A stretch of DNA of 64,000 nucleotides from a virus, in IMG/VR virus record IMGVR_UViG_3300024983_000137, one strand, 5' to 3'. The notes beneath the pieces were generated by a model, which was given only the letters and a program-made list of their open reading frames with translations, ran no database searches and was not told the origin of the DNA. This document shows, in pieces, positions 18,632-62,357 of this stretch (its first letter is position 1; the number at the start of each line of letters is the position of its first letter). The position numbers were made by a program, and so were the translations under genes.

Positions 18632-19995
18632 TAAATCACTTTTAGCATATGCTTTTCTATATCGTATTTTTCTAACAGATCATATTCTCCTGCTAATATC
18701 AAATACGATCTTATTTTTTCCTTGTATTCTGAATGGCTTTTCAAAAAATCAGAAAATGAAGATTTTCTGTGCTGCTTTATCAATTCAATAAATTCTATCA
18801 ATTCTTTAATACTCGAATCATCGGTAGAATAGTATAAATAAAACAAGAACACATTTCGTTCTAAACTGTTATTAAAAATCCGATAATCACGTTTTCTAAT
18901 TAAGTCGCTAACCAGCTTTTGTCTATTGGGACTTTCTTCCAATGTTTTTTTGCGAATGTTTATTTCTACAGCATCGTCTTCATAAATGAGGCTATCTGAG
19001 TCTATATATTTCAAACCATACATACTCTCTAAAAACTTCAATAAATCTTCACTACTAAAATTGAAACATTTGTTGTTTGATTCCTTATATCTGTCAATCT
19101 CGGGTAAGTTTGTTGTTAAGATAAGCATAGGCTTTTCAGAACTTTCTCTTTTCTGAAACGGAATAGTTATTTTAAATTCTAAATTTTGAATACGTTCTTT
19201 TAATGTAGAATCAAAAATCTTTACATTCTTTCTTAATGTTTCGTAGTAAGTTAGTTCTTCTCCTATGGAATAAATAGCGTATCCATCTATTAGTTCTTTG
19301 ATTAAGCCATTTTTTGATTTACTAACAGAAACAAGAATTTGAAAACTCATTTTGGTAAATGATATTTCATCTATGCTTTGTAGTCCATTGGGTATTCCAA
19401 AATCTTCTCTTTGCTCTATAGCAACAGCAAAAACCAATTCGGAGATTTGATTTTTTTCAGGTGGCGTATGCACCAAATCAGGGGCAAATGGTCTTATTAC
19501 ATAGCGTTCTCTTGTTTTCGGATTCGTTTTGTAAAAACTGTAATGTTCATTTATTAGCTTACTTTTATAGTAATTATAAAATACTTTAGGTAACGGTTTA
19601 AATGTAATTCCATCAATAAAAAAATCGTGAGATTGTTTATGACGTCTTAATTGGGTTTTGGTGTCAAAAACAGAAATCCCATCTTCGGTTAATAAATATT
19701 TTTTATCTTCTTTAGTCAATAAACCATCACTTACAAGTTTATCAAGACGTAGTTCTATCAATGCTTTTGACGTGCCGATAATGCTCCCAATTTGAAATGA
19801 GCTAAAATCAGGTTTGACTTTTATAAAATCAACAATTACTTTATCCAAATTGTCAAGCGGGTCAGGCGTGGAATCAGAAATTTCAGAGTGTATGCAATAA
19901 ATAGGATATTGGATACAAAAAATCCCTTTTAATTGCCTATCCATTGCAGACAATTCTTCATAATATCTTTCTATGTCAATACTAAAATTGCTCAT
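18631..19995 (-). CDS. Unknown protein with a probable N-terminal winged helix, 454 aa
   Basis: SSFQIGSIIGTSKALIELRLDKLVSDGLL...YLLTEDG is wHTH-like; 1-nt overlaps with both neighbours. Confidence 0.6.
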   Translation of the reverse strand: MSNFSIDIERYYEELSAMDRQLKGIFCIQYPIYCIHSEISDSTPDPLDNLDKVIVDFIKVKPDFSSFQIGSIIGTSKALIELRLDKLVSDGLLTKEDKKYLLTEDGISVFDTKTQLRRHKQSHDFFIDGITFKPLPKVFYNYYKSKLINEHYSFYKTNPKTRERYVIRPFAPDLVHTPPEKNQISELVFAVAIEQREDFGIPNGLQSIDEISFTKMSFQILVSVSKSKNGLIKELIDGYAIYSIGEELTYYETLRKNVKIFDSTLKERIQNLEFKITIPFQKRESSEKPMLILTTNLPEIDRYKESNNKCFNFSSEDLLKFLESMYGLKYIDSDSLIYEDDAVEINIRKKTLEESPNRQKLVSDLIRKRDYRIFNNSLERNVFLFYLYYSTDDSSIKELIEFIELIKQHRKSSFSDFLKSHSEYKEKIRSYLILAGEYDLLEKYDIEKHMLKVI

Positions 19996-22900: not shown

Positions 22901-23921
22901 TTTTCTTGGCTTCACTCGATTTAACCTGGCTATGTCCAAATGAAAAGTCCTTGATAATGAATTTTATTTCCTTTTTATCTTTACTTATTGCAACATCTCC
23001 AAAGATGTTTACATCTTCATTATAAAGTGAAAAATCAGTTTTTTGATTTCCTTCCCGAATATTTATTTTAAACCAATAGTGTTGATTAGATAATAGCTCT
23101 AAGAGTTTGTTTTCACTTTCGTTTGAAACATTGGTTTCATTTAAAAAATAAGGAATTGCATTTTGCTTAAATGTTGTCTCGTAGCTTGCGTTTCCTAATT
23201 CAAACTGTATGTATAACGTTTTGTCTGTTTTAAATTCCTTTGAAAATATTTTATCATCAAATTCAAAACCGGCTTTAATTACAATTAGTTGCTCGTCTGT
23301 TGCGTAAACACCAAGAATTGAGTTCTTGAAAAAATAGAATGATTGTAAATCATCTTCAATAAAGTTGATTTCAGGGATTGAAAATTCTTCGTCTGCTTCG
23401 TCTTGTGCAATATCTAAAGATGCAGGAACAAAGGAAAGCAATTCACTATAATCAAGTTTAGAATTAACTTTGACCCTAATCTTTTTCTCTGGATTTTGAA
23501 GATAGTTATTATTTATTATGCCATAAAGACTATCATTTGTCTTTACGATTGTAGTATTGTTGTATCTTTCAACAATATCAGCATAAAATTCATCACCACG
23601 TTCTATTCTTTCCCAAGCTACGGTGCTGCTTATAGGTTCTGAAAGATGTTTTTTGCTTAAAATAACTTGTTTATTGGGGAAGTCTATATTCAGAACAACA
23701 CAATTAATTTTATCGCCAACTTTGAATTTTTTAAATTCTGCTTCACCTTCTGGAAAACACCAAGAGAGATCCATTATAGATAAACGACCAATAAAATCGT
23801 TTTCAATTTCTAATATTATCTGAGAAGGATTTATGATTGAAGTAATGTAGGTTTCAATAACAGTTCCTCTGTCATATTTTTGTAAAAACTCAGTTCTTAA
23901 TTTTTCCTTACCAATCTCCAT
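19995..23921 (-). CDS. SF1 (Upf1/DNA2-like) helicase with N- and C-terminal S1 RNA-binding domains, 1308 aa
   Basis: QGPPGTGKTT, IIDEAGK, VGDQKQLPP, YQHRMHP, IIAPYKSQV, TLDSFQGKE, RRLNVAFSRAK; S1-like segments (GRLSIMDLSW...VGDKINCVVL; YGYFIK-type EFGYFIKMETGLEGLLHKS). Confidence 0.88.
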   Translation of the reverse strand: MEIGKEKLRTEFLQKYDRGTVIETYITSIINPSQIILEIENDFIGRLSIMDLSWCFPEGEAEFKKFKVGDKINCVVLNIDFPNKQVILSKKHLSEPISSTVAWERIERGDEFYADIVERYNNTTIVKTNDSLYGIINNNYLQNPEKKIRVKVNSKLDYSELLSFVPASLDIAQDEADEEFSIPEINFIEDDLQSFYFFKNSILGVYATDEQLIVIKAGFEFDDKIFSKEFKTDKTLYIQFELGNASYETTFKQNAIPYFLNETNVSNESENKLLELLSNQHYWFKINIREGNQKTDFSLYNEDVNIFGDVAISKDKKEIKFIIKDFSFGHSQVKSSEAKKRNTKYGSFLFSNKLKIISPYGTTPFDNSQNEFLDYAVLKTKCFETINQLKNEAGEILRQEGRTLAIIDKFLEYQISLIEQQKENNVFVDKCERIPAANQGVAIKLPRTVGDSLEVNEDTVVNVRLKDKDEDKLIKLSDGILSYSNDDYVITFNKQIKLSLLKDGFYLDKRISKKQFQIQREIIQDFLDKKIKIDHIESLLVKPDKVKTPILKSVQFKNENLAITENEDSSNNQITAVKKAVGNQNIFLIQGPPGTGKTTVIAEIIQQLVEKGEKILVSGQNHVAVDNVLEKISQFPKLNLLRVGNPDRIDKQLVRYSIDNLVDEYKIDFKKFIANQLLVANEYLTKKINGTDKSEIKTSLNQYINSLIEKYGVLKEVYKQRHFILLKGLSELSLSEIKETIEILKKWVEESNNEYEILLKPLIYNSIDVVFATCIGIKSDPIFKDKNFKFDTVIIDEAGKANIAESLVAIELGEKVILVGDQKQLPPYMDGSLIDKSEPTSFPNSVYGSEFLEEEILHALKTSFFEFIVNRINADQFPKENIEMLNYQHRMHPNIGEFVSSSFYDGKVKMGSKTHLNRLDFPSPFDKEVVFFDTSNSKNPFEQNDGFSAMNNTEAETISEIILPKLFDNEVNPSNIAIIAPYKSQVANIKNHINRSSCKFKNIDVSTLDSFQGKEYDIIIFSFTRSSDHSKAPVINGKPKFSKVGFLDDARRLNVAFSRAKKKLIFIGNSKTLTDKRSHYDRIFDYTELFKNLVRLSKKDAIGNFINVADLYDFKSPFESFLEKYKVGDTTTGVSKKLGVSKDSDKPYGLFIDINEVTVLAPYFHKGQILNKNFTNYVEGDPVNVIVTEIDNNSKRITVMLINKNNSLNYLTTNPPNGNPQHYNRKNTEQEKNLNWETTIKKYKKGDWVNGIVQKEVEFGYFIKMETGLEGLLHKSWIKSSNNILLNETIRVKIIKIDRTKKQIAFSY

Positions 23922-24603
23922 TTTATTTTCATTTTAGGCTGAGTATTCATTTTACAGATGGCAAATAGATTAAAAAAATGCATAGAAACATCTATTCACA
24001 TGAATTTGTCCATTTGTGATATATATAATCTACATATAAATTCATACTAAATAATTTTTGATATTACTTGTTTATCGTTAGGCGTAATAGTGAATATGTA
24101 TGGAAATAACTTCTAATTTATTAAAAATGAATCTTCTTACGAAGAACCAATATTACAAAATATATGATAAAAATCTACATAAAACAAAACATTTTAGCGT
24201 TTATTACCTCCTTAATGTAAATCTCTTGATTAAATTTTATGTCCCAATTTTGGTAAATATTTGATACAAAATCCAGTCATAAATCAGCGACAAATTTTAA
24301 ATCTGTTTTTTGAAAAATGCTATATTTATTAGGTGTTTTAGCTTGTTTTTTGTCACAAATAATGACAAAATTTGTTACAAAATAAGAGGAATTACAGATG
24401 GTATAATCAAATTCAATTGAGGGTGGTCAGGAAGGTAGTCAAGTGGTGGTCAAGTTGAAAATAAATAGTAATTCTCAATTGAAAATTGATATTGAGTATT
24501 TATACCTAATCAACTAGGTATAAATACCCGATTTTCATCCATCATACACATCATATTTCAAAATTTAGTAGCATTGTATACTCATACCTGAATAACGAAT
24601 CTT

Positions 24604-24636
24604 TTTGTCACAAATTTTTACTAAATTTGTGACAAA
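24604..24636. promoter_or_regulatory. Perfect 14-bp inverted repeat upstream of the AbiE-type operon
   Basis: TTTGTCACAAATTT-ttact-AAATTTGTGACAAA, 17 bp before the GTG start. Confidence 0.65.
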
Positions 24637-24653
24637 TTATTATTTTAAACAAC

Positions 24654-25268
24654 GTGCAAACATCTAAAAATAAGATAGAAAATAAAATTTTAAAATCTCC
24701 GAGAGGAATACTGTTCTTCGCTGAGGATTTTACAAATTATGGAACACCTGAAAATATCCGTCAGGTACTGTCTCGTTTAGAAAAAGAGAGTGTATTAGTA
24801 CGTTTGGCACATGGAATTTATGTTAAGCCCAAAATAGATCCGTTATTAGGGACTATTTTACCTACTGCAGAACATGTAGCTGTCGAAATTTCAAAACGTG
24901 ATAAGTCGCGAATAGCTCCAACAGGAGTTCTGGCATTAAATCTATTAGGACTATCTACCCAAGTCCCGATGAATGCCGTATATCTTACTGATGGTTCACA
25001 AAGAATCGTAAAAATCGGAAAGCGGACAATCAGATTTAAGAAAGCCGCACCAAGAAATTTTGCGATAAAAGATGAACTCCTGCATTTGATTGTCCAGGCA
25101 ATGAAAGTAACAGGGCAAAAAGAAACAACAGATGATTTTCTGGATCGGATAAAACCATTCGTGCAAAAGTTAAATCCGGCTGTAATCAAAACACAATTGA
25201 AATATGGCCCTGTATGGATACAGAAAGAGATTATGAAACTATACAAAAATCAGACGGATGTGGATTAA
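24654..25268 (+). CDS. abiEi: AbiEi-like antitoxin / transcriptional regulator (DUF6088-like)
   Basis: N-terminal wHTH (IRQVLSRLEKESVLVRLAHGIY), ALNLLGLSTQVP...YLTDG; overlaps the downstream NTase. Confidence 0.78.
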   Translation: MQTSKNKIENKILKSPRGILFFAEDFTNYGTPENIRQVLSRLEKESVLVRLAHGIYVKPKIDPLLGTILPTAEHVAVEISKRDKSRIAPTGVLALNLLGLSTQVPMNAVYLTDGSQRIVKIGKRTIRFKKAAPRNFAIKDELLHLIVQAMKVTGQKETTDDFLDRIKPFVQKLNPAVIKTQLKYGPVWIQKEIMKLYKNQTDVD

Positions 25269-26262
25269 TTTAGAAAGAAATCAAAAAATACAGCTATTAG
25301 AGCAAATGAGTACCTTGACAGGATACCCTGCTTTAGTCATTGAAAAAGACTGGTGGGTATGTCTTGTTTTAAAAGCTGTATTCCAATCAGAATATGCAGA
25401 CTCTATTATATTCAAAGGAGGAACTTCATTAAGTAAAGCATATCAATTGGTAGAACGCTTTTCGGAAGATATCGACTTGATTATCGACAGACATCTGTTA
25501 GGATTTGACGAACTAAATTCAAAATCTCAGATCAAAAAACTTCGCAAAGCATCAGGAGGATTTATCATCAATGAATTCAGAGAAGAATTAATACAGCAGC
25601 TCTCCAACTTGGGAATAGATTCTTCCTTATACGAAATCAAATACAATGACGAAGTAGATGATACCAGCGACCCAAATACACTGGAATTACACTATCAGTC
25701 CGCTATAGATACAGACAATGACTACATACAAAAACGGGTACTTTTAGAAGTCGGTGCACGATCACTAACCGAACCATCCGAAAAGAAAGCCGTTATTTCA
25801 TTCATTGATAAAGAATTTAGTCATTTACCATTCGCATTGCCTGAGTTTAATGTACAAGTGGTAAAACCAATCAGAACGTTTATCGAAAAGACCTTACTGT
25901 TACACGAAGAATTTTCGAAACCAACAGACAAAATAAGAACAGACCGCTTAACAAGACATCTGTACGATCTGGAAAAAATGATGGATACAGAACATGGTAT
26001 TACAGCAATAACCGATGATGAATTATTCAATACAATTGTAGAACACCGCAAAAGTGTTACTCCTATACGTGGGATTGATTATTCCAATCATAAAAAAGGA
26101 AAACTCAAAATCGTACCTCCTCAAGAAGTCATTCAAGATTGGGAAAACGATTACAAAGAAATGCAGCAAAACATGATGGCAGGCGAAAGCTTGCCGTGGA
26201 ACGCTCTCATAGAGCGAATAAAAGAAATTGAAATAAGATTTAATGAAATTGAAAAAGAATAA
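25258..26262 (+). CDS. abiEii: AbiEii nucleotidyltransferase toxin (type IV TA)
   Basis: IEKDWWV, FKGGTSLSK, RFSEDIDL, EKTLLLHE, RHLYD. Confidence 0.88.
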   Translation: MWINLERNQKIQLLEQMSTLTGYPALVIEKDWWVCLVLKAVFQSEYADSIIFKGGTSLSKAYQLVERFSEDIDLIIDRHLLGFDELNSKSQIKKLRKASGGFIINEFREELIQQLSNLGIDSSLYEIKYNDEVDDTSDPNTLELHYQSAIDTDNDYIQKRVLLEVGARSLTEPSEKKAVISFIDKEFSHLPFALPEFNVQVVKPIRTFIEKTLLLHEEFSKPTDKIRTDRLTRHLYDLEKMMDTEHGITAITDDELFNTIVEHRKSVTPIRGIDYSNHKKGKLKIVPPQEVIQDWENDYKEMQQNMMAGESLPWNALIERIKEIEIRFNEIEKE

Positions 26263-26265
26263 GAA

Positions 26266-28542
26266 ATGAGTGGATTTAAATTGTTGGCAATAAGACCATT
26301 GGAGGGATGTGATGAAAAGTATAGGAAAAATTTGATTCCGGGACAGATTTATCAATTTTATCAGGATTATCAATTTGAAATTTCCAAGGATGAAGAAGGC
26401 AAAGAAGTTGTTTCTGCAAAACCTTTAGAAACTAACGTTCCAATGGATTTGTACAATATTAGACGAAAAGATAAGCCAGATTTGAAGATTAATATTTCTG
26501 CAATTGTAGGTAAGAACGGTAGTGGGAAAAGTTCATTGCTTGAAATTATTTATGGTACAATCTATTTGCTAGGTGAACAGGAAGAACTTTTTGATGATGA
26601 AAGTAGCTTTGATGAGGCAAATAGACTCCTTTTAGATGCAAAAGATTTGTTCAATAAACATAAGAAATTTAAAGAAGAAACAGAATTAGAATGGTACAAG
26701 AATTTTTTTGAAGATATTACGATAAATCTAGAAGGTAATTCGGAATACCTAAAACTGAATGAAGACAAGTATAAACGAATCAGAAAATTATTTGAACGAA
26801 CAAAACCAGATAATTACGAAGAATTAATAAATATTCGACAACGAACTGTTGACTCGTTTAATCACATTCATACTGGACTGAAAACAGAAATTTATTTTGA
26901 AATAGATAGTGTTATCTATGTTATTCGCGTGAATAATGATGAAAAACAAGTTTCAATTACTCCTATCCACGGATTATCCATTGAAGATTATAAAAAGAAA
27001 GAACTTTCTATTCTTCAAACATTCTTTTATTCTATAGCTGTCAATTATTCAATTCATGGATTAAACGATCGTACAATTGGTAGTTGGATAAATCCGCTAT
27101 TTCATAAGAATGATGGTTATCAAACTCCTTTAGTTATCAATCCAATGAGAACACATGGGGATTTTAAAATTGAAAGAGAAGAATATCTAGCAAAATCAAG
27201 GTTGTTATCTAACCTATTATTGAATGATGAAAAAAATGAACACCGGAAATTAACTGATAAACAGATAGCAACCCACCTAATATTTACTCTTAACAAAGAG
27301 AAAATTGGTCCAGATAGACTTAAAACAATTAATGAAGACACACTTAAGGATAGAATTACTAAACAAATCCAGAGTGAATTGTATGGAACATTCAATATCA
27401 ATATTGATTTAATTAATATTCCATTTAAGCAAGAAATTGAAAATTACATACTCAACAAAATTGAAAAAATATTGTATGTGTATAAACCCTATGAAAAAAC
27501 ATACACGAATAACTTAGCAAGATTTAGAGATGTTGTATTTGATACTGTAATAGAAGAAAAAATTCCTCAACTCATAAATGCGCTTTATACAGATGATTCT
27601 CACATTACGTTTAAATTGCGTCAGGCGATCAATTATTTAAAAAATGGCTTATTAGAAAATGTTGCTGATAAAATAGAGTGGGAATTTGGTAACCATAAAT
27701 ATCTTTTGGAAAGTTGGAATGATAAAGATCAATATGTCATTTCCATTGAAAGTTTATCAGATAAGCTGGCTAAAAAAACAAATGATCGACTAATTAATTT
27801 AATCCCTCCGTCGCTTTTTGATATTGAGATTATATTAACTGATGATAAATCTCTGTCGTCTTTTAAGCTATTAAGTTCAGGTGAACAGCAACATATTCAC
27901 TCTATACAATCCATTCTTTATCATCTTTATAACATTGATTCTGTTTTCAATCAACCAGATCATAGTGAGATTGTTGGTACACGCTTTACATACCCAAATA
28001 TTAATATAGTCTTGGATGAAATTGAGTTATATTTCCATCCAGAGTTTCAAAGAAGATTTGTTTCTGATTTACTTAAATCGATAGGACGTTTGAATTTAGG
28101 TAAAAATGATGCTAAAGATAATTTTTTGGGTATCAATTCAATCAATATTTTGTTTGCTACTCATTCGCCCTTTATTCTTTCAGACATTCCATCACAAAAT
28201 GTTCTCCGTTTGGAAAATGGCATTCCATCTAATAATGAGCAAAAAGGAACTTTTGGAGCAAATATTCATGAGATGCTCAATGACAATTTTTTCTTAGATA
28301 AAGGTGCAATGGGAGAGTTTGCTAAGACGCATATTGAGGATATAGCCAAAGAAATAATAGATTCAAATTTCATTGAACTCAAAAAAGTATACGAATTATC
28401 AAAAAAGATTGAAATAATTGAAGAACCGCTTATAAAAGAAAGACTTGAGTTTTTACTTGCACAAAAGAGTTCTTTGAAAAGTAAAGATGAAATCATTGCC
28501 GAGTTGAAACAAGAAATTCAGGGTTTGAAAAATAAAAGTTAA
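26266..28542 (+). CDS. ptuA: ABC/AAA_21 ATPase, Septu PtuA-like
   Basis: GKNGSGKSS Walker A, LSSGEQQ signature, LDEIELYFHPEFQR Walker B/D-loop, ATHSPFILSD H-loop; followed after 4 nt by a partner gene. Confidence 0.72.
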   Translation: MSGFKLLAIRPLEGCDEKYRKNLIPGQIYQFYQDYQFEISKDEEGKEVVSAKPLETNVPMDLYNIRRKDKPDLKINISAIVGKNGSGKSSLLEIIYGTIYLLGEQEELFDDESSFDEANRLLLDAKDLFNKHKKFKEETELEWYKNFFEDITINLEGNSEYLKLNEDKYKRIRKLFERTKPDNYEELINIRQRTVDSFNHIHTGLKTEIYFEIDSVIYVIRVNNDEKQVSITPIHGLSIEDYKKKELSILQTFFYSIAVNYSIHGLNDRTIGSWINPLFHKNDGYQTPLVINPMRTHGDFKIEREEYLAKSRLLSNLLLNDEKNEHRKLTDKQIATHLIFTLNKEKIGPDRLKTINEDTLKDRITKQIQSELYGTFNINIDLINIPFKQEIENYILNKIEKILYVYKPYEKTYTNNLARFRDVVFDTVIEEKIPQLINALYTDDSHITFKLRQAINYLKNGLLENVADKIEWEFGNHKYLLESWNDKDQYVISIESLSDKLAKKTNDRLINLIPPSLFDIEIILTDDKSLSSFKLLSSGEQQHIHSIQSILYHLYNIDSVFNQPDHSEIVGTRFTYPNINIVLDEIELYFHPEFQRRFVSDLLKSIGRLNLGKNDAKDNFLGINSINILFATHSPFILSDIPSQNVLRLENGIPSNNEQKGTFGANIHEMLNDNFFLDKGAMGEFAKTHIEDIAKEIIDSNFIELKKVYELSKKIEIIEEPLIKERLEFLLAQKSSLKSKDEIIAELKQEIQGLKNKS

Positions 28543-28666: not shown

Positions 28667-29452
28667 TTAAACGCTCTTTAAATCATAATTCGCAGTCAAA
28701 GCTTCCACCTTCCTCTTATTCGAATTACGGCTCGCAGATAGCACCATATCCTTGTCATCATTAAACCAACTACATTCTGTACGTGCAGCTGTTAGATACT
28801 CATTAGGATAACTGCTCATTAGAAACTTCCCTTTGATCGTCTTCAGCGTATCAATAAGCTCATTGAAATGCTCTTGTGTGTAACCTCCGTAATGACCCTG
28901 ATTGCTGTCAACGTATGGCGGATCAAGGTAGAAGAACGTTTCCGGCGTGTCCTGCTTTTTAATCAGCTCCACAGCATCTTTATTCTCAATCTGAACAAAA
29001 TCTAATCTTTGAGATAAAACCTCGTCAAACAGTAGCTTTTTATTGAAATTGAGCTTTGCCTCCTTACTTCGGGTGGTTGAACTGCGCCAGGAACCTATCT
29101 TATTACTGAAGCCTTGAATTGTCCCAACCCAAAAAGCCCAGGCGCGAACTTCCGGCCGGAAGATAAAAGGATTCTCATACACAACCATTGCCTGCTTATA
29201 TACATCTCTCGAATAAGGTGTGGCATCAATGAGTTTCTTCAGTTCTTTATAGTTTGTTTTTAACTGATGGTAGAAATTGACAACATTAGCATTGTAATCA
29301 TTGATAATTTCAACATCTGCTGGTTCTTTAGCAAAAAAGACAGCGCCTCCGCCAAAGAACGGTTCTACATATACGTGATGTTCCGGAATGATTGGTAAAA
29401 TGTGTTTTAGCATACTCTGCTTTCCTCCGTAATAACTAATTGGTGTTTTCAT
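28667..29452 (-). CDS. DNA adenine methyltransferase (Dam/D12 family)
   Basis: YYGGKQ, YVEPFFGGGAV (SAM binding), FYLDPPY (catalytic). Confidence 0.9.
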   Translation of the reverse strand: MKTPISYYGGKQSMLKHILPIIPEHHVYVEPFFGGGAVFFAKEPADVEIINDYNANVVNFYHQLKTNYKELKKLIDATPYSRDVYKQAMVVYENPFIFRPEVRAWAFWVGTIQGFSNKIGSWRSSTTRSKEAKLNFNKKLLFDEVLSQRLDFVQIENKDAVELIKKQDTPETFFYLDPPYVDSNQGHYGGYTQEHFNELIDTLKTIKGKFLMSSYPNEYLTAARTECSWFNDDKDMVLSASRNSNKRKVEALTANYDLKSV

Positions 29453-33627: not shown

Positions 33628-34162
33628 GAGTTACATTTTTGTTTTCCATATCCTTAAAAGTGATTGCCTGAGAAGACATAGCACCATTGAACGCAGTTGC
33701 TCCATTCGGGCCGCTGGCTGCGGTTGAAGCTCCGACTGCATTCAACCCTGTCATTACAGCATTCTTCATTGCCTCACAATATTGCTTCAGTGCATCCAGG
33801 TTATTTTCCAGGTCTTTCAGTTTGACCAGGCCGCCAAAATCATCACCGCGCAGCTTCAGCTGTTCCTTTGGCATCAGCTCCATATTGACTATCTCGCTAA
33901 ACAAAACAACTTTTAAATTTTCCAGCTTGCCATCGGCCATAGCACACAACACGATACTACCAACCTCCGGCTCTATGAATACGCCTGTCTCGTCATCGTT
34001 CAATACTGATCTGATCGTCACATCTTCCACGGTTCCGCCCTGGTTCAATTCAACTGATATTGTCCAGTTCACGGACTCAAAAGACTTTACTGTTCCGATC
34101 AGCAGATCAGGCTTAATCATCGACTTAACGACTTGTCTTATTGCTTTTACAATTTCACTCAT
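33620..34162 (-). CDS. Baseplate spike (gpV-like)
   Basis: N-terminal OB-like region with PEVGSIV; follows the hub gene. Confidence 0.6.
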   Translation of the reverse strand: MSEIVKAIRQVVKSMIKPDLLIGTVKSFESVNWTISVELNQGGTVEDVTIRSVLNDDETGVFIEPEVGSIVLCAMADGKLENLKVVLFSEIVNMELMPKEQLKLRGDDFGGLVKLKDLENNLDALKQYCEAMKNAVMTGLNAVGASTAASGPNGATAFNGAMSSQAITFKDMENKNVTHG

Positions 34163-35115
34163 GCGCTTGCTTTTGGTCCTGGTTGTACATCTTGTTCTAT
34201 TCCGGATACTCCGAAGGAATACTTTACACCGTCGATATAATAATCACCTGTTTTGTCTGAATCCTGAGAATTCTGAAGCGTCAGTATATCGCCATGGAAA
34301 ACGATCGGTGCGCCGAACAATTTAAGATCACCACGATAGCCATCATACTTTAGTTTCTCAGCTTCAGCCTCGGCAATTGGTTGCAATTGACTTTTGGGAA
34401 TGTTAAAGAAATTAAGTGTTCGTTCTTCTCCGTCCGGATCACCAAACTCCACCTCTTCTTTTTTGCCATTAGCCATGTTTGAGATGGCAGTTACTTTAAT
34501 CTTCACATCTTCTTTAGCCATATATTCCAGATTCTGAGATTTCACATTGCAATCAGAAGACTGATCAATAATCACTGTGTGCCGCTGATTGGAAGAGTCA
34601 GAATATTGTTTTCCAACGACCAACCAGCCTTTTCGGAAAAAGGAGTGAAAGCCGTATTCCTCTTTAATCTCATCCAGCAGCTGTGCACCTGTCTTTTTAC
34701 TGACTACCTTTGAAGGAATCGTCACATCAAAAGCATCCACAGGAACGTTTAACACTCTCTGCAGGTAATCGCCCAATTTTTCATTTTTACAATTCTCGTT
34801 GATCTGAATACGCTTTAAATTCCACATCTCATCTTCACATTCAATCTCCACCGGCACTTTACTTCGAACCCGTGCAACATATCCTTTAAATATCTCTGTT
34901 AATGGTGTGCCTTCATAGCCTATCTTTACTGATACTTCACTGCCAACAGGGATTGCTTTTTTCAAATCATTGTAATCAATTTTCAATGCGGCAGGAAGCA
35001 TAATAACAGCCTTATCCGTGAACTCTTTCCACGAACTTTCAACTGTAACCTGGTGAACAAAGTCAAACCAATAGTTACCGATCGTTATGCTGCTTTTTAA
35101 AACTTCCATACTCAA
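34159..35115 (-). CDS. Baseplate hub (late-control-D-like)
   Basis: KIGYEG...FKGYV...IECEDEMW; YDGYRGDLKLFGAP. Confidence 0.7.
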   Translation of the reverse strand: MSMEVLKSSITIGNYWFDFVHQVTVESSWKEFTDKAVIMLPAALKIDYNDLKKAIPVGSEVSVKIGYEGTPLTEIFKGYVARVRSKVPVEIECEDEMWNLKRIQINENCKNEKLGDYLQRVLNVPVDAFDVTIPSKVVSKKTGAQLLDEIKEEYGFHSFFRKGWLVVGKQYSDSSNQRHTVIIDQSSDCNVKSQNLEYMAKEDVKIKVTAISNMANGKKEEVEFGDPDGEERTLNFFNIPKSQLQPIAEAEAEKLKYDGYRGDLKLFGAPIVFHGDILTLQNSQDSDKTGDYYIDGVKYSFGVSGIEQDVQPGPKASA

Positions 35116-35764: not shown

Positions 35765-38017
35765 TTAAATTGCGGTTTCATAATCTCGCACAGCTCCGAT
35801 CAAAGCTTCGGATACTTGTTTCTTAATATCTGCAGCCCCTTCTTTTACTGAGCTTGTCTGAATGATCAGATTCTCCACCAGGCGTTCTATTCGAACACTG
35901 ATGTTTCGCTTTTCACCTCCGGAACCTGATCCGGAAGAACTACCGGAAGCCGCCGATCCTGATTTCTGACCTAAGCGTGACTTTAAGCGTGTAATTTCAC
36001 CAGCCAGCCTGTAGTATTCTTTTGTACCGATCTTTGTTGCCGATTTCTGCTCTTCCAGTAACTTGATCTGCTTCTTAATCGCTGCTTCCGTATCATCCGC
36101 CGGTTGCTGTTTCGTTTCCAGATCAGGAATCGCCACCGGAGCTTCCGGCTGTGTTGCTTCGGGTTGTGACGAAGTCTTTTGTGCGTTCAGTTCTTTTTGT
36201 AAAGAGGCAACATTTTTTCGGTATTGAGATTGTTTTTGCCGCGACTCTTTTCCTGATTCATGCCAAGCTGACGTTCCCGTTAACCAATGAGCAGCAATGT
36301 TTGCGATGTTAGGCCCATCCTGCTTATTAAGAAGCTCATCTTTCTTTTCCTGAACCAGAAGTTCTTTATTCGCTTCTAATTCCGCTTGCTTATCAATATT
36401 TTTGATAAGATCCTTATAAGCACTATTTAAGTCTTCTATACGTCCTTTGTGCAGATCATACTTTTGAATGATGCCAGGATACTTGTTGTTTAATTCTGTC
36501 AAGGCCTGCTTGTAATCGTCAGAACCTTTTTTGGCGGATTTTAAACGGCCGAAAAGCAGATCCAGTTCTGTACGTTCTTCTACTGTCTTTTCAATTACCT
36601 TTTGTTTAACAGCAGCTTGAACCTGTGCCGCTACAGTATTTGTTTTCATCGCTCGTGTGAGCGCATAAATTCCAGCGGCAGCTGCCACAGTACCGGTAAT
36701 GATCAGGCCGATCGGATTAGCGTTCATCGCAGCATTCCATATCAATTGAGATGCGGACGCTGCTTTGGTTGCCACATTCTGGTAAATTGTGGATTTACGA
36801 AGTAGTTCGATTCCACTTTTCGCACCGGTAACTAATGGAACAAACGCCGATATTTCACGAACAGTTTCGCTCAGAGGTGTCAGGTAGGCAATCGTTCCGC
36901 CTGTCAGGTTGTACAACGACACTTTCATATCATCAACACGCGCCTGCCAGCGTGCGAGCTTTTCCTCGTCAGATTCCATCATGGTTGCTGCATAACGCTG
37001 CGCCTCGTTGGTTCCTCTGATGGACGCTGTCATTTCATCCTGCGCATCTGCAGTAGCGATCAATGCTTGTGCAGCTCCGGAATAAGGACCGCCGAATAAT
37101 GCCCCGATCAACGCAGTATCTTTAGCGATTGGTTTCAGCATTCGGAGTTTATCTGTGAATGACACCGTGGTATCCGCTAATTTGCTGATGTCAATACCAG
37201 CACCCCGCAATTCGTCCTGAACTTTCTCCGGCAGGAAACGGCCTTTTGAGAGCTGCTCCAATACATTTCGAAGAGCAGTTCCACCTTCTGCAGATTTATA
37301 GTTTGCTTTGTCCAGGAACTGAAGAGATGAAAGCATTTGTTCAAATTCCAAGCCAGCACGTTTTGCAGCACCTCCGGCAACACCAACTGCCGCCTGCAGT
37401 TGTGGCAATTCTGATGATCCGGCATTTGCGGAGGCAGCCATGGCATTCATCATGACCGTCATTTGCTCCTGCGCTTTTGCGGCATTGGTCAGGTCAACAT
37501 TGTATTGTTGTACTGCAGTGGAAAGTACTGCGGCAGCTCCGGGCACATCTCCACCCATAGATTTTGCCAAGACCTCCGCATTACGAGCCATAAGATTAAA
37601 CACTTTCGGTTGTTGTGCCAGCTCCGGTCCGAGCTGCGCAAGAATCAACTTGAAAGTTTCAATGGATTTAGCGGCATCACCCCCGAATTCCTTCGCGTTC
37701 TCGCGGGCCATATTACCAAGCTCCCGCAGTTTTTTACCGGTAATCCCGGACATTGCCTCCAGCTCTTTCAGAGCAGCGTTATACTTTAATCCCGGCTCAG
37801 CAGCATTACGTAAACCTTCCGAAACATTATCAATACCCTGAATGACTGATTGAAAAGAAATATTCTTCAAAGATTTGCGCATGGATTCCCATGTGTCTTT
37901 CGAAGCTTTTTCCACATCTTCCACTTTATCACGCAACGAGGTTACTTCCGATCGGAGCTTTTTCAGCTCTTCGAAAATACCGTGGCCGATATTCATATCG
38001 AATGTTGCGTCACTCAT
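35765..38017 (-). CDS. Tape measure protein
   Basis: 750 aa, Ala-rich helical; KSAEGGTALRN motif (TP901-like core); follows the chaperone genes. Confidence 0.85.
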   Translation of the reverse strand: MSDATFDMNIGHGIFEELKKLRSEVTSLRDKVEDVEKASKDTWESMRKSLKNISFQSVIQGIDNVSEGLRNAAEPGLKYNAALKELEAMSGITGKKLRELGNMARENAKEFGGDAAKSIETFKLILAQLGPELAQQPKVFNLMARNAEVLAKSMGGDVPGAAAVLSTAVQQYNVDLTNAAKAQEQMTVMMNAMAASANAGSSELPQLQAAVGVAGGAAKRAGLEFEQMLSSLQFLDKANYKSAEGGTALRNVLEQLSKGRFLPEKVQDELRGAGIDISKLADTTVSFTDKLRMLKPIAKDTALIGALFGGPYSGAAQALIATADAQDEMTASIRGTNEAQRYAATMMESDEEKLARWQARVDDMKVSLYNLTGGTIAYLTPLSETVREISAFVPLVTGAKSGIELLRKSTIYQNVATKAASASQLIWNAAMNANPIGLIITGTVAAAAGIYALTRAMKTNTVAAQVQAAVKQKVIEKTVEERTELDLLFGRLKSAKKGSDDYKQALTELNNKYPGIIQKYDLHKGRIEDLNSAYKDLIKNIDKQAELEANKELLVQEKKDELLNKQDGPNIANIAAHWLTGTSAWHESGKESRQKQSQYRKNVASLQKELNAQKTSSQPEATQPEAPVAIPDLETKQQPADDTEAAIKKQIKLLEEQKSATKIGTKEYYRLAGEITRLKSRLGQKSGSAASGSSSGSGSGGEKRNISVRIERLVENLIIQTSSVKEGAADIKKQVSEALIGAVRDYETAI

Positions 38018-39070: not shown

Positions 39071-40276
39071 TTACGAGTTAAAAGGGTTATTAAATCCGAT
39101 TTTGATAATTATCTTTCTGGCAGTTCCTACCGGAGTAATGGTCAGTACTGCTTCCAGCTGAGAGGTTGCCAGGATATCCTGAGCAGGCTCTATTGTGAAT
39201 GTAAATCCGGAGATTTCGCCAGCTGTCAACATTTCATCGGTGATCGTTTTGTTACCGACTTGTTCCAACATAGCTACCACATTAGGAGCGAGCTGACCTG
39301 TATTTGGGTCAACATAGATCGGACTATTCAGATAAGGCAAAAATGCGCGTCTGATCAGGCGGGTAGCTTTATCAATAGTCCGGTTGTTTTCCAGGTAAGC
39401 GAAATCATCAGTTAATGTGGTACAGGTGAATGAATCGTTCCAGTACAAGCCTGCCTGCGGATCATCCGCAAAATCCTTCAGGAACACCAGTCCGTTATCA
39501 TTCATTGTTGTGAGCTGGGATAATGACAGCTGAGAAATTTCAGTTCCACCAACAGCTGCTTTCATCAGGTTGCCGCCGATCTGGTTGAATTTCTGCAACC
39601 ATCCGATATTCTCATGTACAGCTGCTAAGGACGCTGTCCCAAGCGCCCGACCGATAGCACACCGATATTTTGTATCGTTATCCTGAGCAATAGCATAGTT
39701 TTGACCAGCAACTGCAGTTACATTCCGTGCATTTTTGTTGTGATAATTTGTCGATGTGGCAACAGCAACTGTCAAGCCGACCATTTCCACCAAAGCAGAT
39801 AATGGGTAATGATTAGTACGCAGTGTTGTCGTTACTGACTGAGCAGCGGCGATCACTGCATCCAAATCAACAGGCGTTGCCGGAATACCCGTTAACTTAT
39901 CATTGTAGCTGTAGCCGACCAGCTTGACAGCTCCACCGGAACCAAGTACCAAAGGCTCTGTTTTCTGAGTGACCATCTGTGCATACGTCAGTGTATTATC
40001 GACACCATATATCCATACTTCTCCAGTAGATGGATTAGAAAGGAAAAAGTCTTTGATGTTTTCATACACCAATACCTTATTAGTGGTATCATACGTCTCG
40101 TCGATCAGGAGCGCATCCAGGTCAGCCAAAGCTGTCAGCCTGTATGCTTTATTCAACTGAAACCCGCCGACCACTGCAACCGCGTTGAACAACAGACCGC
40201 TAACGCCGTCTGTTGCTGCCACACGTCTTCCAAGGCCTCCGGACTGCTGAACTACTATTACATCATTAAAAGCCAT
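39071..40276 (-). CDS. Tail sheath protein (DUF2586-like)
   Basis: GLYWNDSFT...LENNRTIDKA...ITPVGTARKIIIKIGF C-terminus. Confidence 0.8.
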   Translation of the reverse strand: MAFNDVIVVQQSGGLGRRVAATDGVSGLLFNAVAVVGGFQLNKAYRLTALADLDALLIDETYDTTNKVLVYENIKDFFLSNPSTGEVWIYGVDNTLTYAQMVTQKTEPLVLGSGGAVKLVGYSYNDKLTGIPATPVDLDAVIAAAQSVTTTLRTNHYPLSALVEMVGLTVAVATSTNYHNKNARNVTAVAGQNYAIAQDNDTKYRCAIGRALGTASLAAVHENIGWLQKFNQIGGNLMKAAVGGTEISQLSLSQLTTMNDNGLVFLKDFADDPQAGLYWNDSFTCTTLTDDFAYLENNRTIDKATRLIRRAFLPYLNSPIYVDPNTGQLAPNVVAMLEQVGNKTITDEMLTAGEISGFTFTIEPAQDILATSQLEAVLTITPVGTARKIIIKIGFNNPFNS

Positions 40277-51170: not shown

Positions 51171-51194
51171 TTCTTAATTTTTAATTGTTTCAAA

Positions 51195-51491
51195 TTATTG
51201 ATTTATTGGTTTCCATTTACGTTTTTGTAAGCTAATACCGTACTGTTTTACGGTGTCTGTTAATATCGTAATTTCGCTTTTTTTACTTTTTTCAAACTCG
51301 TTAATTACTTCAGCAAGTTTGCTAAGTGAATCACAAGCAGTGTTACAAACGTGGTATATATTTTTTAGTGCTTCCGTCAATTCATCTACTGTAAATCTTG
51401 TCACGATTGAAAGATGTTCTAATTCTTTATTTATTCTATCCGAATCAAATTCTGAATATCCTAATAATGTCCAATCCATATCAATATTCAA
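51195..51491 (-). CDS. Hypothetical protein, 98 aa
   Basis: ATGA-type overlap with the upstream gene. Confidence 0.5.
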   Translation of the reverse strand: MNIDMDWTLLGYSEFDSDRINKELEHLSIVTRFTVDELTEALKNIYHVCNTACDSLSKLAEVINEFEKSKKSEITILTDTVKQYGISLQKRKWKPINQ

Positions 51492-51778
51492 CTAAATTCA
51501 TAATACTTTCCAACCTGGACAATAGTCGTACTGAAAGGAAAGCTGTCTTTTGAAATCTGGTTCAGTGTGTTGATCAACACAGTAGATCCGGTAAACAATA
51601 CATGCTTCATTTCATTAAACTCTATTTGAATCTGCGCATATTCTCCTTTGATTTTAGATGGAGAAATAATGTAGGCATGAACAATTATTTCCTTGTTTAA
51701 AATCCAGTTTATCTGAACTTTGTTACCGATGAAATGATTAGTTTCATTTCTTATTCCGAGATCACTGAACTTCTTCAT
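51488..51778 (-). CDS. 96-aa protein coupled to the RT (candidate DGR accessory)
   Basis: Start overlaps the RT 3' end by 17 nt; beta-rich; LFTGSTVLI...FPFSTTI. Confidence 0.6.
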   Translation of the reverse strand: MKKFSDLGIRNETNHFIGNKVQINWILNKEIIVHAYIISPSKIKGEYAQIQIEFNEMKHVLFTGSTVLINTLNQISKDSFPFSTTIVQVGKYYEFS

Positions 51779-52727
51779 ATACCTTTAATTTTTTGATTAG
51801 ATTTTTTGTGTCGGCATGCTTTGCCCAACCCATATACCCGGCAATAGATGCTTTGTTTTTTCGTTTCTTGAGCATCCGTGCAAAATTCTTTTTAATGCTC
51901 TTCCGGAGTAAGATGTGCGTGTGGTAGAATTTATAGCCTATAAAATCAATGCCGCGGGATGCAACGGGAAATACCTGGTAATTATCCTTTACCTGTAAGT
52001 TCAGCTCTTCGTTTAAATACCGTTTAATGGCTGCTAAAATACCGTGTAAAAAAGGTTTATTATCAGAGAGGATCACAATATCATCTGCATATCTGAAGTA
52101 GTATTTCACCTTCAGCTCTTCTTTGATCCAGTGATCAAAATAACACAGGTAGAAGTTTGCAAAATACTGACTAAGATAATTTCCAATAGGAATACCCGGT
52201 GCGCTGGCAATAATCTCATCCAACGACCATAACAGATCCTTGTCTTTTATTTTTCGACGAAGAAGCTCTTTTAAAATGTCATGATCCACGCTCGGATAAA
52301 ACTTCTTAATATCCAGCTTCAGACAGTAACGTGTACCTTCTTTATCCTTCAGGGACTTTTTGAGCCTCCGGAAAGCTGCGCCTATTCCCATACCTTTAAT
52401 ACAGGAATACGTATCGCTTGTGAATGTGGAGACAAATAATGGTTCCAGGATATTCATAATAGCGTGGTGGACGATGCGGTCAGGATAATAAGGAAGGCTA
52501 TAAACAAGACGCTCTTTTGGTTCAAAAACTGAAAACGTTGAATAAGCGGATGTTTTATAGCCTTTTTCCTGCAGTAATTTATGCAACAGTAAAATGTTCT
52601 CCTCACGATGCAGATCATGGGCTTTTACACCGTATTGTTTTGACTTACCCTTTCTTGCTTTTTGATCTGCCAGGATAAGGTTTTCAATACTGATCACTTG
52701 TTGAAATAAATTACCTTTTCTTTTCAT
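51762..52727 (-). CDS. DGR reverse transcriptase
   Basis: PDRIVHHA, LKLDIKKFYPSVDH, GIPIGNYLSQ (DGR-type GxxxSQ), RYADD; adjacent TR/VR pairs. Confidence 0.93.
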   Translation of the reverse strand: MKRKGNLFQQVISIENLILADQKARKGKSKQYGVKAHDLHREENILLLHKLLQEKGYKTSAYSTFSVFEPKERLVYSLPYYPDRIVHHAIMNILEPLFVSTFTSDTYSCIKGMGIGAAFRRLKKSLKDKEGTRYCLKLDIKKFYPSVDHDILKELLRRKIKDKDLLWSLDEIIASAPGIPIGNYLSQYFANFYLCYFDHWIKEELKVKYYFRYADDIVILSDNKPFLHGILAAIKRYLNEELNLQVKDNYQVFPVASRGIDFIGYKFYHTHILLRKSIKKNFARMLKKRKNKASIAGYMGWAKHADTKNLIKKLKVYEEVQ

Positions 52728-52824
52728 CTCCTTTGTTTTTCGGTCATCTTCGGAAATCCTACCAATGCCCTTTTGTAAACTTTATCTTTTGCACTGTTGG
52801 CAAGGTCTATGATGCAATTTCAAA

Positions 52825-52892
52825 GTTGTGGGCTGAGAACCGAGTTCGTGTTCGTGTTCGTGTAATTCGAATCGTTGAACTGGAAACCTGAA
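52825..52892 (-). repeat. DGR template repeat (TR), 68 bp
   Basis: Minus strand TTCAGGTTTCCAGTTCAACGATTCGAATTACACGAACACGAACACGAACTCGGTTCTCAGCCCACAAC, 21 A, rich in AAC/AAT codons. Confidence 0.93.
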
Positions 52893-52935
52893 CAACGAAC
52901 CACCGGCTACAGCTACATCATACAACCTGATTGTT

Positions 52936-53310
52936 TTATTTTTTCGGATTGTAAAGCTCCTTAAAGATCGGAGCTGTCAACTCCGCGAATTGTTTCGATT
53001 TCGCGGTTGTCTGTTGGGAATGGAGTGGGCCGAGAACCGAGCCCGTGTTCGTGTCCGCGTAATCCGAATCGTCGAACCGGAAACCCGAAGGATTATTAAC
53101 CCAGAACCAGGACTCATATTTATCTTGTGATCGATCGTCATAATCAGGTTCCCAACCATCCCGAACAGCATCGCTGATCACTAACGATTCAAATACTTTC
53201 TCCAGGATTGGAACATACTGTTCCGGGATTCCCGTAATGACAGGTTTTGTGTTGGGAGCGATATTCATTTTCTCGAATGCCTGCTCTACCGTGTTAATCG
53301 TTTTTGACAT
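52936..53310 (-). CDS. DGR target protein 1, 124 aa
   Basis: Contains VR1; WEPDYDDRSQDKYESWF motif. Confidence 0.88.
   Translation of the reverse strand: MSKTINTVEQAFEKMNIAPNTKPVITGIPEQYVPILEKVFESLVISDAVRDGWEPDYDDRSQDKYESWFWVNNPSGFRFDDSDYADTNTGSVLGPLHSQQTTAKSKQFAELTAPIFKELYNPKK
53022..53089 (-). repeat. Variable repeat VR1
   Basis: 11 mismatches to TR in 68 bp, all at TR adenines (9 to G, 1 to T, 1 to C). Confidence 0.93.
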
Positions 53311-53311
53311 A

Positions 53312-53794
53312 TTACTTCTTTTTTAGAATGATTACATTTTTAAATTCACCTTCAAAGGTTCTTCCTACATAGTCAGTCACTTCCTCTGATGGAAGCCAAA
53401 GGAGTGGGCCGAGAACCGAGCGCGTGTGCGCGTTCGAGTAATCCGAACCGAGGAACCGGAAACCCGAAGGATTAGCGGGTGAAATTTCTAAATCAAACCA
53501 AGGAAACCATTTGCGCTGATTAGTGTTATTAGGATCTAATTCCTCAGCTTCTTTTTGAAACAGCTCACAGATCAGCAATACTCTGTCAAGTGCCTGACGT
53601 GCTGCAATCCGTGGATTATCGCTGGTGATCTCATAGTCCTTTGGATCCTGCGACATTTCCTTACATACTTCCTCAAAGGTTTTAATTCTACCTACTAAAG
53701 GCAGTGACTTTGGTTTGAACTTAATGACACCTGATTCAGTGTTAAAACTATCTACCTGAAAGCCTTCAGGGATTTGAATTTTTAATTGTTCCAT
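53312..53794 (-). CDS. DGR target protein 2, 160 aa (paralogue of target 1)
   Basis: Contains VR2; DPNNTNQRKWFPWF motif. Confidence 0.88.
   Translation of the reverse strand: MEQLKIQIPEGFQVDSFNTESGVIKFKPKSLPLVGRIKTFEEVCKEMSQDPKDYEITSDNPRIAARQALDRVLLICELFQKEAEELDPNNTNQRKWFPWFDLEISPANPSGFRFLGSDYSNAHTRSVLGPLLWLPSEEVTDYVGRTFEGEFKNVIILKKK
53401..53468 (-). repeat. Variable repeat VR2
   Basis: 14 mismatches to TR in 68 bp, all at TR adenines. Confidence 0.93.
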
Positions 53795-53803
53795 ATTATT
53801 GAT

Positions 53804-53971
53804 TTATTGGTTACTATTATTTTCTTTCATTGCGATTACAAACAATGCGTAAATCGCAAAATAGATCGTACCTGCTCCTAACTTCAGGTAGAGGTCAACC
53901 GGTGCAGCTCCGATGGCGAAAAAGGCCATAAAGAAAGCACCGGAGATAAAAAGATTAAAAAGGGTTTTCAT
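53804..53971 (-). CDS. 55-aa two-TM membrane protein (absent from the ORF track)
   Basis: MKTLFNLFISGAFFMAFFAIGAAPVDLYLKLGAGTIYFAIYALFVIAMKENNSNQ; fills the gap between flanking genes. Confidence 0.6.
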   Translation of the reverse strand: MKTLFNLFISGAFFMAFFAIGAAPVDLYLKLGAGTIYFAIYALFVIAMKENNSNQ

Positions 53972-61615: not shown

Positions 61616-61667
61616 TACTTTGTTTTTGTTAAGTATTTTAGCAAATATATACAAGTTATCTCGTTTA

Positions 61668-62357
61668 ATGCAAATTTATATGCAAGAAAAATCGCTTATT
61701 AAGCAAAATATTTTACAATACATTGATTTTAAAGGTATTTCTAAATATAAATTTTACCAAGACAGTGGTATCACAAGAGGAATATTAGATCAAAACAATG
61801 GAATGTCTGAAGAAAACACAACGAAATTTCTCGCTTGTTTTCCAGAAGTTAATCCTGCATGGCTACTTACCGGAAAAGGGCCGATGTTGTTAAAAAGTTA
61901 CTCATCATTAGAGAATGAAAATGATATAAGCACAGTAAATGAACCGGTTGCTTTCTCTGGTAAAAAGAGAGGTATTCCTCTATTACCTATCGAAGCAATG
62001 GCAGGAGTGTTTAAAGGGGATATTCAGGTAATGGAATATGAATGTGAGTACATCTATATCCCAATGTTTAAAGATGCTCATTTTTTCATGCCGGTATTGG
62101 GTGATAGTATGTACCCAACTTATAATAATGGAGATATTGTTGCATGTAAAAAATTGGAGTCCTGGTCTTTTTTTCAAATAGGAAGAGTATATGTGATATA
62201 CACATCTCAAGGAGCAATTATCAAGCGGGTCATGAAAGGAAGCTCAGAAGACTATCTATTGATAGTAAGCGACAATGAAGATTACCCGCCATTTGAACTG
62301 CCTAAAAATGAAATATTGGGTGTTGCGTTGGTTATTGGCGGGGTTTGGGTGGAGTAA
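61668..62357 (+). CDS. Prophage CI-like repressor (HTH plus S24)
   Basis: ISKYKFYQDSGIT HTH; GDSMYP and IIKRV peptidase motifs; start could be 61668 or 61680. Confidence 0.88.
   Translation: MQIYMQEKSLIKQNILQYIDFKGISKYKFYQDSGITRGILDQNNGMSEENTTKFLACFPEVNPAWLLTGKGPMLLKSYSSLENENDISTVNEPVAFSGKKRGIPLLPIEAMAGVFKGDIQVMEYECEYIYIPMFKDAHFFMPVLGDSMYPTYNNGDIVACKKLESWSFFQIGRVYVIYTSQGAIIKRVMKGSSEDYLLIVSDNEDYPPFELPKNEILGVALVIGGVWVE

Follow-up and report, generated by a model that had tools for sequence, protein, structure and literature searches.

A diversity-generating retroelement with two small tandem targets in the early region of a Mu-like prophage

Diversity-generating retroelements (DGRs) are, to our knowledge, the only natural systems of targeted protein hypermutation outside vertebrate immunity, and all experimentally characterised DGR targets that we know of are surface or virion binding proteins with a C-type lectin (C-Lec) fold. 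A cassette carried by a 64,000-nucleotide stretch of viral DNA (IMG/VR record IMGVR_UViG_3300024983_000137; the whole stretch is termed the window herein) raises the question of what such a system diversifies when its targets are two small proteins encoded among early genes. The best overall explanation, with a probability of about 0.6, is that the cassette is an intact DGR of canonical mechanism, belonging to clade 1 and target cluster PC_00007, which lies in the leftward early operon of a Mu-like prophage and diversifies two early non-virion proteins. That it is a real DGR of an already catalogued class can be regarded as practically certain.

Template, variable repeats and reverse transcriptase

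An unbiased repeat search of the window returned one three-copy repeat family, at 52822-52898, 53019-53095 and 53398-53474. These copies comprise a template repeat (TR) and a variable repeat in each of the two targets (VR1 and VR2). The TR core contains 21 adenines in 68 nt; VR1 differs from it at 11 positions and VR2 at 14, all of them TR adenines. The chance of adenine-only mismatches under random placement is 2.3e-7 for VR1 and 9.4e-10 for VR2. In addition, a TR pattern carrying N at every adenine was matched three times in the window, by TR, VR1 and VR2, with 0 matches expected by chance. A first-pass annotation, made from the sequence alone, had described these adenine-only mismatches to a 68-bp TR, and alignment in register bears them out; its order of target 2, target 1, TR and reverse transcriptase (RT) agrees with the minus-strand coordinates of the open reading frames (ORFs), and the TR and VR peptides that it quoted were read correctly. 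It had also placed the VRs internally, about 25-30 residues before the C-terminus; VR1 and VR2 were found to end at 0.77 and 0.81 of their proteins, with 28 and 30 residues remaining.

VR1 and VR2 have a G/C-rich 3' end in common, CTCGGTTCTCGGCCCAC, where TR has A at one position and AA instead of TC just after it. This end, which resembles an initiation of mutagenic homing (IMH) element, occurs three times in the whole 3.5-Mb genome assembly, which leaves no remote third target, for example in the tail module. DNA folding revealed a 7-bp hairpin after VR1 (z = -3.7) and no convincing comparable element after VR2.

Evidence that this machinery has operated comes from a related phage, L001, whose DNA is 74% identical over the cassette. 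The L001 TR equals the window TR at 65 of the first 66 bases, and the sole non-adenine TR difference, T/C at position 7, reappears in both VRs of the phage concerned. Furthermore, the four VRs of the two phages differ from one another at adenine columns only, 19 of the 21 adenine columns being variable. Since the TRs are conserved, the non-adenine difference is mirrored and the VRs differ at adenine columns only, the comparison indicates TR-to-VR homing with adenine mutagenesis since the window phage and L001 diverged, with sequence flowing in one direction.

The RT matches PF00078 at 6.7e-20 and phrog_1423 at 1e-118, and is 42-58% identical to RTs of phages with annotated DGRs. Its motifs are intact and of the DGR clade, with IGNYLSQ at residue 181, followed by YFAN, and YADD at residue 213. 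Only 208 nt separate target 1 from the RT, and no ORF between 50.3 and 55.4 kb gave an Avd-like match (four-helix bundle, PF05635-like). Directly after the RT lies a 96-aa ORF without a Pfam family, whose predicted structure (predicted local distance difference test, pLDDT, 92) is a five-stranded barrel with one helix, resembling an oligonucleotide/oligosaccharide-binding (OB) fold. A homologue is present at 50 of the 80 best IMG/VR loci, and others stand directly after the RT in the archaeal virus ANMV-1, where the DGR target is the tail-fibre-linked adtA, and in a Methanosarcinales virus. Because homologues adjoin the RT in these two viruses, the ORF goes with the RT and not with the type of target. 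The predicted OB-fold protein is thus a candidate DGR accessory factor, possibly in place of Avd; a full-text literature search found no paper describing an OB-fold DGR accessory. The features of the cassette are collected in Table 1.

Table 1. Components of the cassette, from the RT-distal target to the last ORF (positions in the window).
Feature	Position	Strand	Basis or measurement
Target 2 ORF, 160 aa, RT-distal paralogue, ~35-aa N-terminal extension	53312-53794	-	ORF
VR2	53401-53468	-	14 mismatches to TR, 14/14 at TR adenines
Target 1 ORF, 124 aa, RT-proximal paralogue	52936-53310	-	ORF
VR1	53022-53089	-	11 mismatches to TR, 11/11 at TR adenines
Candidate hairpin, 7-bp stem CCGCGAA/TTCGCGG, inside coding sequence, ~16 nt 3' of VR1	52983-53006	-	DNA fold z = -3.7
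TR, 68-nt core, in the 208-nt gap between target 1 and RT	52825-52892	-	Repeat search and alignment in register
DGR reverse transcriptase, 321 aa	51762-52727	-	PF00078, phrog_1423, motifs
96-aa ORF overlapping the RT stop, predicted OB fold, candidate accessory factor	51488-51778	-	Predicted structure, conservation

Two 42-nt direct repeats (51176-51217 and 53777-53818), 90% identical and 2601 nt apart, bracket both targets, TR, RT, the OB-fold ORF and a 98-aa ORF. Each takes in a stop codon, an intergenic stretch (CCAATAAATCAATAAT) and the first part of the following gene, and the pair may represent a junction or recombination scar left when the cassette was inserted. L001 and locus L010 showed no equivalent; locus L018 has a weak 30-nt repeat pair, 2298 nt apart.

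A catalogued target class in a Mu-like prophage

The target class is already catalogued and is widespread in Bacteroidota phages, the window being a divergent Mu-like member. Roux et al. sorted DGR targets into 24 clusters, two viral ones being termed 'non-structural/unknown' (Roux et al., 2021, Nat Commun 12:3076, PMC8144416). One cluster, PC_00007, was labelled 'Phage_other' and assigned to DGR clade 1 and RT cluster REF_DGR_[t122]FP929032.1; 1.6% of its members are called structural by PhANNs, and the authors caution that 'non-structural' clusters may consist of uncharacterised structural proteins (PMC8144416). IMG genomes 2593339301, 2643221924 and 2711768317, the sources of loci L032, L038/L040 and L017, are all listed in Supplementary Data 2 of that study, as viral FCB clade 1 entries of RT cluster t122, with an RT of 321-384 aa, a PC_00007 target and a VR at 0.71-0.77; primary and secondary targets with consecutive gene identifiers are given beside the RT (PMC8144416). 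Through their sequence relationship to these listed relatives, the window targets belong with PC_00007. Membership of the viral FCB group, an RT of ~321 aa, an internal VR and primary and secondary targets beside the RT are all held in common, while the window proteins are divergent, being 25-35% identical to most of the family. In the catalogue of Roux et al., PC_00007 is an entry without fold, partner, accessory gene or function.

A search of IMG/VR with a 15-row sub-alignment yielded at least 538 confirmed relatives of the target family, and, of the best 80 loci, 62 have directly downstream an RT with 54-72% identity to that of the window. After dereplication to 45 RT clusters (hereafter non-redundant loci), two VRs were counted at 38, three at 3, one at 3 and none at 1. 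The related TR-VR pairs measure 60-88 nt, and their mismatches fall 1205 times at A and 48 times at other bases, in pairs pre-filtered for at least 60% A. Given the prevalence of two-VR loci and the recurrence of RT and small ORF downstream, two tandem targets, TR, RT and small ORF constitute the standard layout of a portable cassette. MuA/MuB neighbours were present at only 10-13 of the 80 loci.

The family occurs in 2 of 301 genomes of the order, the window's own included; it is rare in sampled reference genomes and common in viral contigs. The second genome of the order (G011:C21:19750-20875; loci L005, L007 and L008) has the family as three copies in tandem, of which one contains an internal TAA; the RT after them is 67% identical to the window RT. 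At two IMG/VR loci, L011 and L088, there is no RT within 6 kb of the family member, yet each contig carries one of the same clade at a distance of 37-38 kb; remote targets are hence common in this family. A proposal that homologues without an RT within 6 kb (17 of 80 loci) lack a DGR was largely withdrawn, since 3 of 5 records checked proved to have an RT in another part of the phage genome. L040, a copy with no nearby RT, apparently corresponds to a PC_00007 target for which Roux et al. give a distance of nine genes to the RT. Among GenBank phages, a nucleotide search with the cassette and a tblastn search with target 1 found nothing, and the family became visible only with a more typical member, P0077.

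The match obtained with P0077 (tblastn, E ~1e-9) is gp84 of BI-TP1 (PQ571265), a cultured LoVEphage-like Bacteroides phage. Against the family profile, gp84 scored 99.3% in hhalign (E 3.6e-20) over 125 aligned columns, amounting to homology of the whole domain. All 14 mismatches between its VR and the BI-TP1 TR are at adenines, and that TR also diversifies the Mtd_N tail protein gp12; searches of Pfam and of PDB sequences yielded no C-Lec support for gp84. LoVEphage and Quimbyvirus match one prophage, in B. dorei CP011531, and the Quimbyvirus DGR was reported to have a second, non-structural target among methyltransferase and nuclease genes, for which a role in phage-host conflict was proposed (Benler et al., 2021, Microbiome 9:78, PMC8008677). 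Like the window targets, gp84 is a soluble DGR target, homologous to them and encoded away from structural genes, in its case amid DNA-modification and nuclease genes. Unlike them, it occurs singly, and ~15 kb separate it from its RT across the circular ends (~56 kb on the linear record), with a longer VR, a frameshifted RT and a 112-118-nt TR common to the Mtd_N tail protein. By contrast, the window DGR serves only two tandem targets directly beside the RT, from a 68-nt TR, and a tail target is absent from the genome. The BI-TP1 RT (L094 5076-6256) is split over three reading frames, and both VRs nonetheless show adenine-only mismatches; the Quimbyvirus RT is likewise split over reading frames (Benler et al., 2021, PMC8008677).

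The first-pass annotation had set the locus against Bordetella phage BPP-1 (mtd-avd-TR-brt) as a notable departure. The two systems agree in adenine-specific TR-to-VR homing, a DGR-clade RT and a TR between target and RT, and they differ in that BPP-1 has a C-Lec tail-fibre target with a C-terminal 134-nt VR and requires Avd, whereas the window has small helical targets, an internal VR, no Avd and an OB-fold ORF after the RT. As a claim of novelty this contrast is outdated, because the family is PC_00007 (Roux et al., 2021) and is homologous to the distal target of Quimbyvirus/LoVEphage.

The cassette resides in a Mu-like transposable prophage spanning ~28.6-62.4 kb of the window. An S24 repressor (61620-62357, plus strand) is followed on the minus strand by early genes in the order MuA-like transposase, MuB-like protein, Sak4-like ATPase, DUF3164, HNH endonuclease and several small ORFs; the DGR cassette comes next on the same strand, and then five further small ORFs. 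A converging plus-strand block holds terminase, portal and MuF, and the protease, capsid, sheath, tape-measure and baseplate genes are on the minus strand. Early-operon placement ~19 kb from the tail genes had been claimed and holds, with tail genes at 13-24 kb from the cassette (sheath 39071-40276, tape measure 35765-38017, baseplate hub 34159-35115). Hankyphage p00 (BK010646), a Mu-like phage of Bacteroides, has the same arrangement of repressor, MuA/MuB, early genes, converging MuF-portal-terminase block and head and tail genes. Its DGR, on the other hand, stands at the end of the tail module, with a 2245-aa target, a 116-nt VR/TR and a 434-aa RT. Identity with Hankyphage was rejected, and nucleotide similarity to the window cassette is absent.

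The phage had further been said to sit inside a defence island. This was checked at one flank, where defence-type genes do abut the end of the phage. That region (15490-28542) encodes a CARF-PDDEXK nuclease (1e-136), a stand-alone CARF protein, a PLD/DrmC-like protein, a 1308-aa MkoA-like helicase (4e-122), AbiEii (2e-100) and a PDC-M62A/PtuA-like ATPase, and its GC content (~0.30) is low relative to its flanks. The last gene of the prophage at its tail-side end is a DNA methyltransferase (28667-29452, minus strand; phrog_56 at 1.5e-63), at a site where other Mu-like phages, Hankyphage included, carry mom-like or methyltransferase genes.

Target fold and predicted pairing

The targets had been described as 124- and 160-aa paralogues without signal or transmembrane segment, in agreement with their ~30% identity and with the lack of a hydrophobic segment, transmembrane helix or signal peptide in either (maximum Kyte-Doolittle 19-residue means of 0.82 and 0.71). 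Both are acidic (pI 4.7 and 5.2). Neither has a Pfam family, the family as a whole being Pfam-less, and matches to phrog_11581 are weak. An exhaustive search resolved the family into 243 clusters at 50% identity, mostly proteins of 115-170 aa with some tandem fusions. Close homologues of target 2 diverge mainly at VR-coded positions.

An AlphaFold2 model of target 1, built from a 108-row alignment, reached a pLDDT of 87 and a predicted template modelling score of 0.79. It contains helices at residues 8-14, 30-50, 94-97 and 102-120, three of them main helices, and places the VR (residues 75-96) in a long loop (pLDDT 65-77) with a helix after it. Foldseek found no PDB fold match for this model, structure searches of AlphaFold DB, BFVD and ESM Atlas returned only uncharacterised phage proteins of the same family, and the family profile found nothing among PDB sequences. 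Whether the targets have a minimal C-type-lectin-like fold had been asked at the outset; the model matches no solved fold, and in its peptide pattern the VR is similar to the final part of a C-Lec-type VR. The family pattern G-F-x-F...S-x-VGSRLCF aligns to the VR end of the BI-TP1 tail protein gp12 (hhalign E 7.5e-4, probability 25%). In the C-Lec targets Mtd, TvpA, AvpA and TaqVP, the VR is extremely C-terminal and ends in G[FS]R, whereas 28-30 helical residues follow the VR here. As modelled, the target fold is without recognisable C-type lectin character; judging by the sequence pattern, the VR module may have a C-Lec ancestor and have been either transplanted to a reduced scaffold or preserved in one. 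Two candidate assignments were dropped. An SMI1/KNR4 (SUKH) label on one AlphaFold DB neighbour found no counterpart in the family, 0 of 108 members matching that Pfam family, and the small DUF6273 targets of Faecalibacterium-type phages (PMC10743442) are a different family, the corresponding Pfam match being absent here.

The two copies also appear to be of long standing. In a maximum-likelihood tree of 90 targets, the RT-proximal copies fall largely apart from the RT-distal ones, with 9-12 label changes as against ~30 when the position labels were shuffled, and none of 500 shuffles gave so low a number. The duplication is therefore old, and both copies have been kept.

A complex of target 1 with target 2 was predicted with an ipSAE of 0.70 (runs 0.70, 0.59 and 0.72), the best control scoring 0.00. 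The runs have at least 93% of contacts in common, and the pLDDT of the partners is at least 82. In calibration, 58 of 80 solved complexes attained the mark, as against 2 of 110 mismatched pairs; as our own alignments were used, these counts apply only roughly in this case. In the predicted interface, a conserved PWF segment of each chain faces the conserved S-V-L-G-P-L VR end of the other, and variable residues 87-90 of target 1 take part. On the strength of this prediction, the balance tilts slightly towards the two paralogues forming a heterodimer.

Weighing the explanations and the proposed role

The reading that the targets act within the cell rests on their genomic company. A context survey, in which three ORFs on each side of the 45 non-redundant cassettes were clustered, showed that the commonest recognisable neighbour is a co-oriented DNA primase of 700-1100 aa (10 of 45 loci); genes for an exonuclease, a DNA methyltransferase and a replication-initiation-like protein were recognised as well. 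Structural genes were represented by a portal/MuF-type head gene alone, which lies on the other strand, and no tail gene occurs among the recurrent neighbour families or annotated large ORFs of these loci. Early non-structural placement is better supported because the neighbours are of replication type and tail genes are absent, evidence that is circumstantial. The first-pass view of the targets as non-structural has thus been strengthened by early placement, by the co-oriented neighbours and by the missing tail genes, with a virion role remaining its rival, and the targets are rather likely to be non-virion intracellular proteins.

Several points weigh against the explanation preferred here. 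Neither gene position nor PhANNs-type prediction counts strongly against a virion role, and small adhesins encoded apart from tail genes exist. The TR that serves both a tail protein and a family homologue in Quimby-like phages, together with the C-Lec-like VR pattern, could mean a common class of cell-surface ligand. The window's own target pair sits on long branches in the tree. The complex prediction is a model score, by which a heterodimer and homodimers of the paralogues are indistinguishable. Furthermore, no sign of ongoing activity was seen: a 1.2-kb stretch recurs letter for letter in 13 runs (bioreactor or wastewater, 2016-2020), both VRs are unchanged in contigs of 4 others (17 runs in total), and L001-L003, from three runs, are identical to each other. 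As contigs hide minor variants, this point carries little weight.

The best-surviving alternative, though an unlikely one, is that the targets are virion-associated, as soluble subunits, either adhesins or decorations, that attach to the tail or head once made (cf. Mtd and T2-type gp38), and that the DGR tunes host or mucus binding as in BPP-1. The resemblance of the VR pattern to the C-terminal VR end of an Mtd_N-type tail protein fits this idea, as does the single TR that diversifies a tail protein and gp84 in BI-TP1/LoVEphage, and the caution voiced about uncharacterised structural proteins in 'non-structural' clusters applies here (Roux et al., 2021, PMC8144416). It sits poorly with a cassette lodged in the replication or early modules of many phage backbones, with no tail gene among the annotated neighbours at 45 loci and 13-24 kb between cassette and tail genes in the window; in addition, 1.6% of PC_00007 is structural by PhANNs, and a 124-aa protein shows no evident attachment domain.

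It is more improbable that the cassette is a frozen relic in this prophage, in which diversification is over and the VRs have become fixed like any other sequence. Neither VR varies among the 17 metagenome runs examined, from several studies between 2016 and 2020, canonical Avd is absent, and a weak hairpin follows VR1 alone, with none convincing after VR2, all of which would suit a relic. A decayed element would be hard to reconcile with zero non-adenine mismatches over 2 x 68 nt, an intact RT frame with its catalytic motifs, a TR conserved between phages of 74% identity whose VRs differ at adenine columns only, and an Avd-less layout kept in dozens of phages. Moreover, Hankyphage DGR activity goes up on de-repression (PMC12135933). 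Identical consensus VRs would follow if repression kept the early operon silent in lysogens, as reported for Hankyphage, and contigs cannot show minor variants. The locus was absent from all RNA runs searched.

Chance or ordinary paralogue similarity, without any retroelement, has nothing in its favour beyond the fact that the two targets are paralogues and hence similar anyway, and it is rejected as having a negligible probability, being already refuted by the adenine-only pattern (25 of 25 mismatches at TR adenines, P 2e-7 and 9e-10). A third copy that is intergenic and adjoins the RT, and the 0 chance matches expected for the adenine-degenerate pattern, also tell against it.

For an intact DGR acting on early non-virion targets, a course of events can be proposed in which the diversification steps follow established DGR biology. 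TR would be transcribed, and the 321-aa RT, probably with the co-translated 96-aa OB-fold protein as its helper in place of Avd, would copy it into cDNA with misincorporation at template adenines. The cDNA would then replace VR1 and VR2, recoding ~11 codons in each target. The targets would be early-expressed cytoplasmic binders that work as a pseudo-symmetric heterodimer whose variable loops lie at the interface or next to it. Since the cassette lies in a repressor-controlled early operon, diversification would occur mainly in lytic growth. The most plausible guess is that the targets have a role in phage-host or phage-phage conflict; the anti-defence, superinfection or host-takeover role put forward in the first-pass annotation is conjecture, and a specifically anti-defence function is unlikely. 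More doubtful is a bolder proposal, in which the paralogues form an antibody-like heterodimer whose two loops, independently diversified from one template, make a composite intracellular binding site against a variable host defence or rival-phage protein, the cassette being portable and Avd-independent, with its RT partnered by a small OB-fold single-strand-binding protein also present in archaeal-virus DGRs.

Altogether, the window adds one divergent Mu-like example to a class that is itself no discovery, together with two testable leads, the heterodimer and the OB-fold accessory. New here are a fold without a solved match, the predicted heterodimer, the conserved OB-fold ORF, the L001 TR/VR comparison and the run-wide identity of the VRs. 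With small, probably cytoplasmic early targets, a fold without a solved match, an internal VR and no Avd gene, the class departs from the picture of DGRs given at the outset. It would offer a compact scaffold for engineered diversification, and it implies that phages put hypermutation to a second, unexplained use, plausibly in an intracellular arms race.

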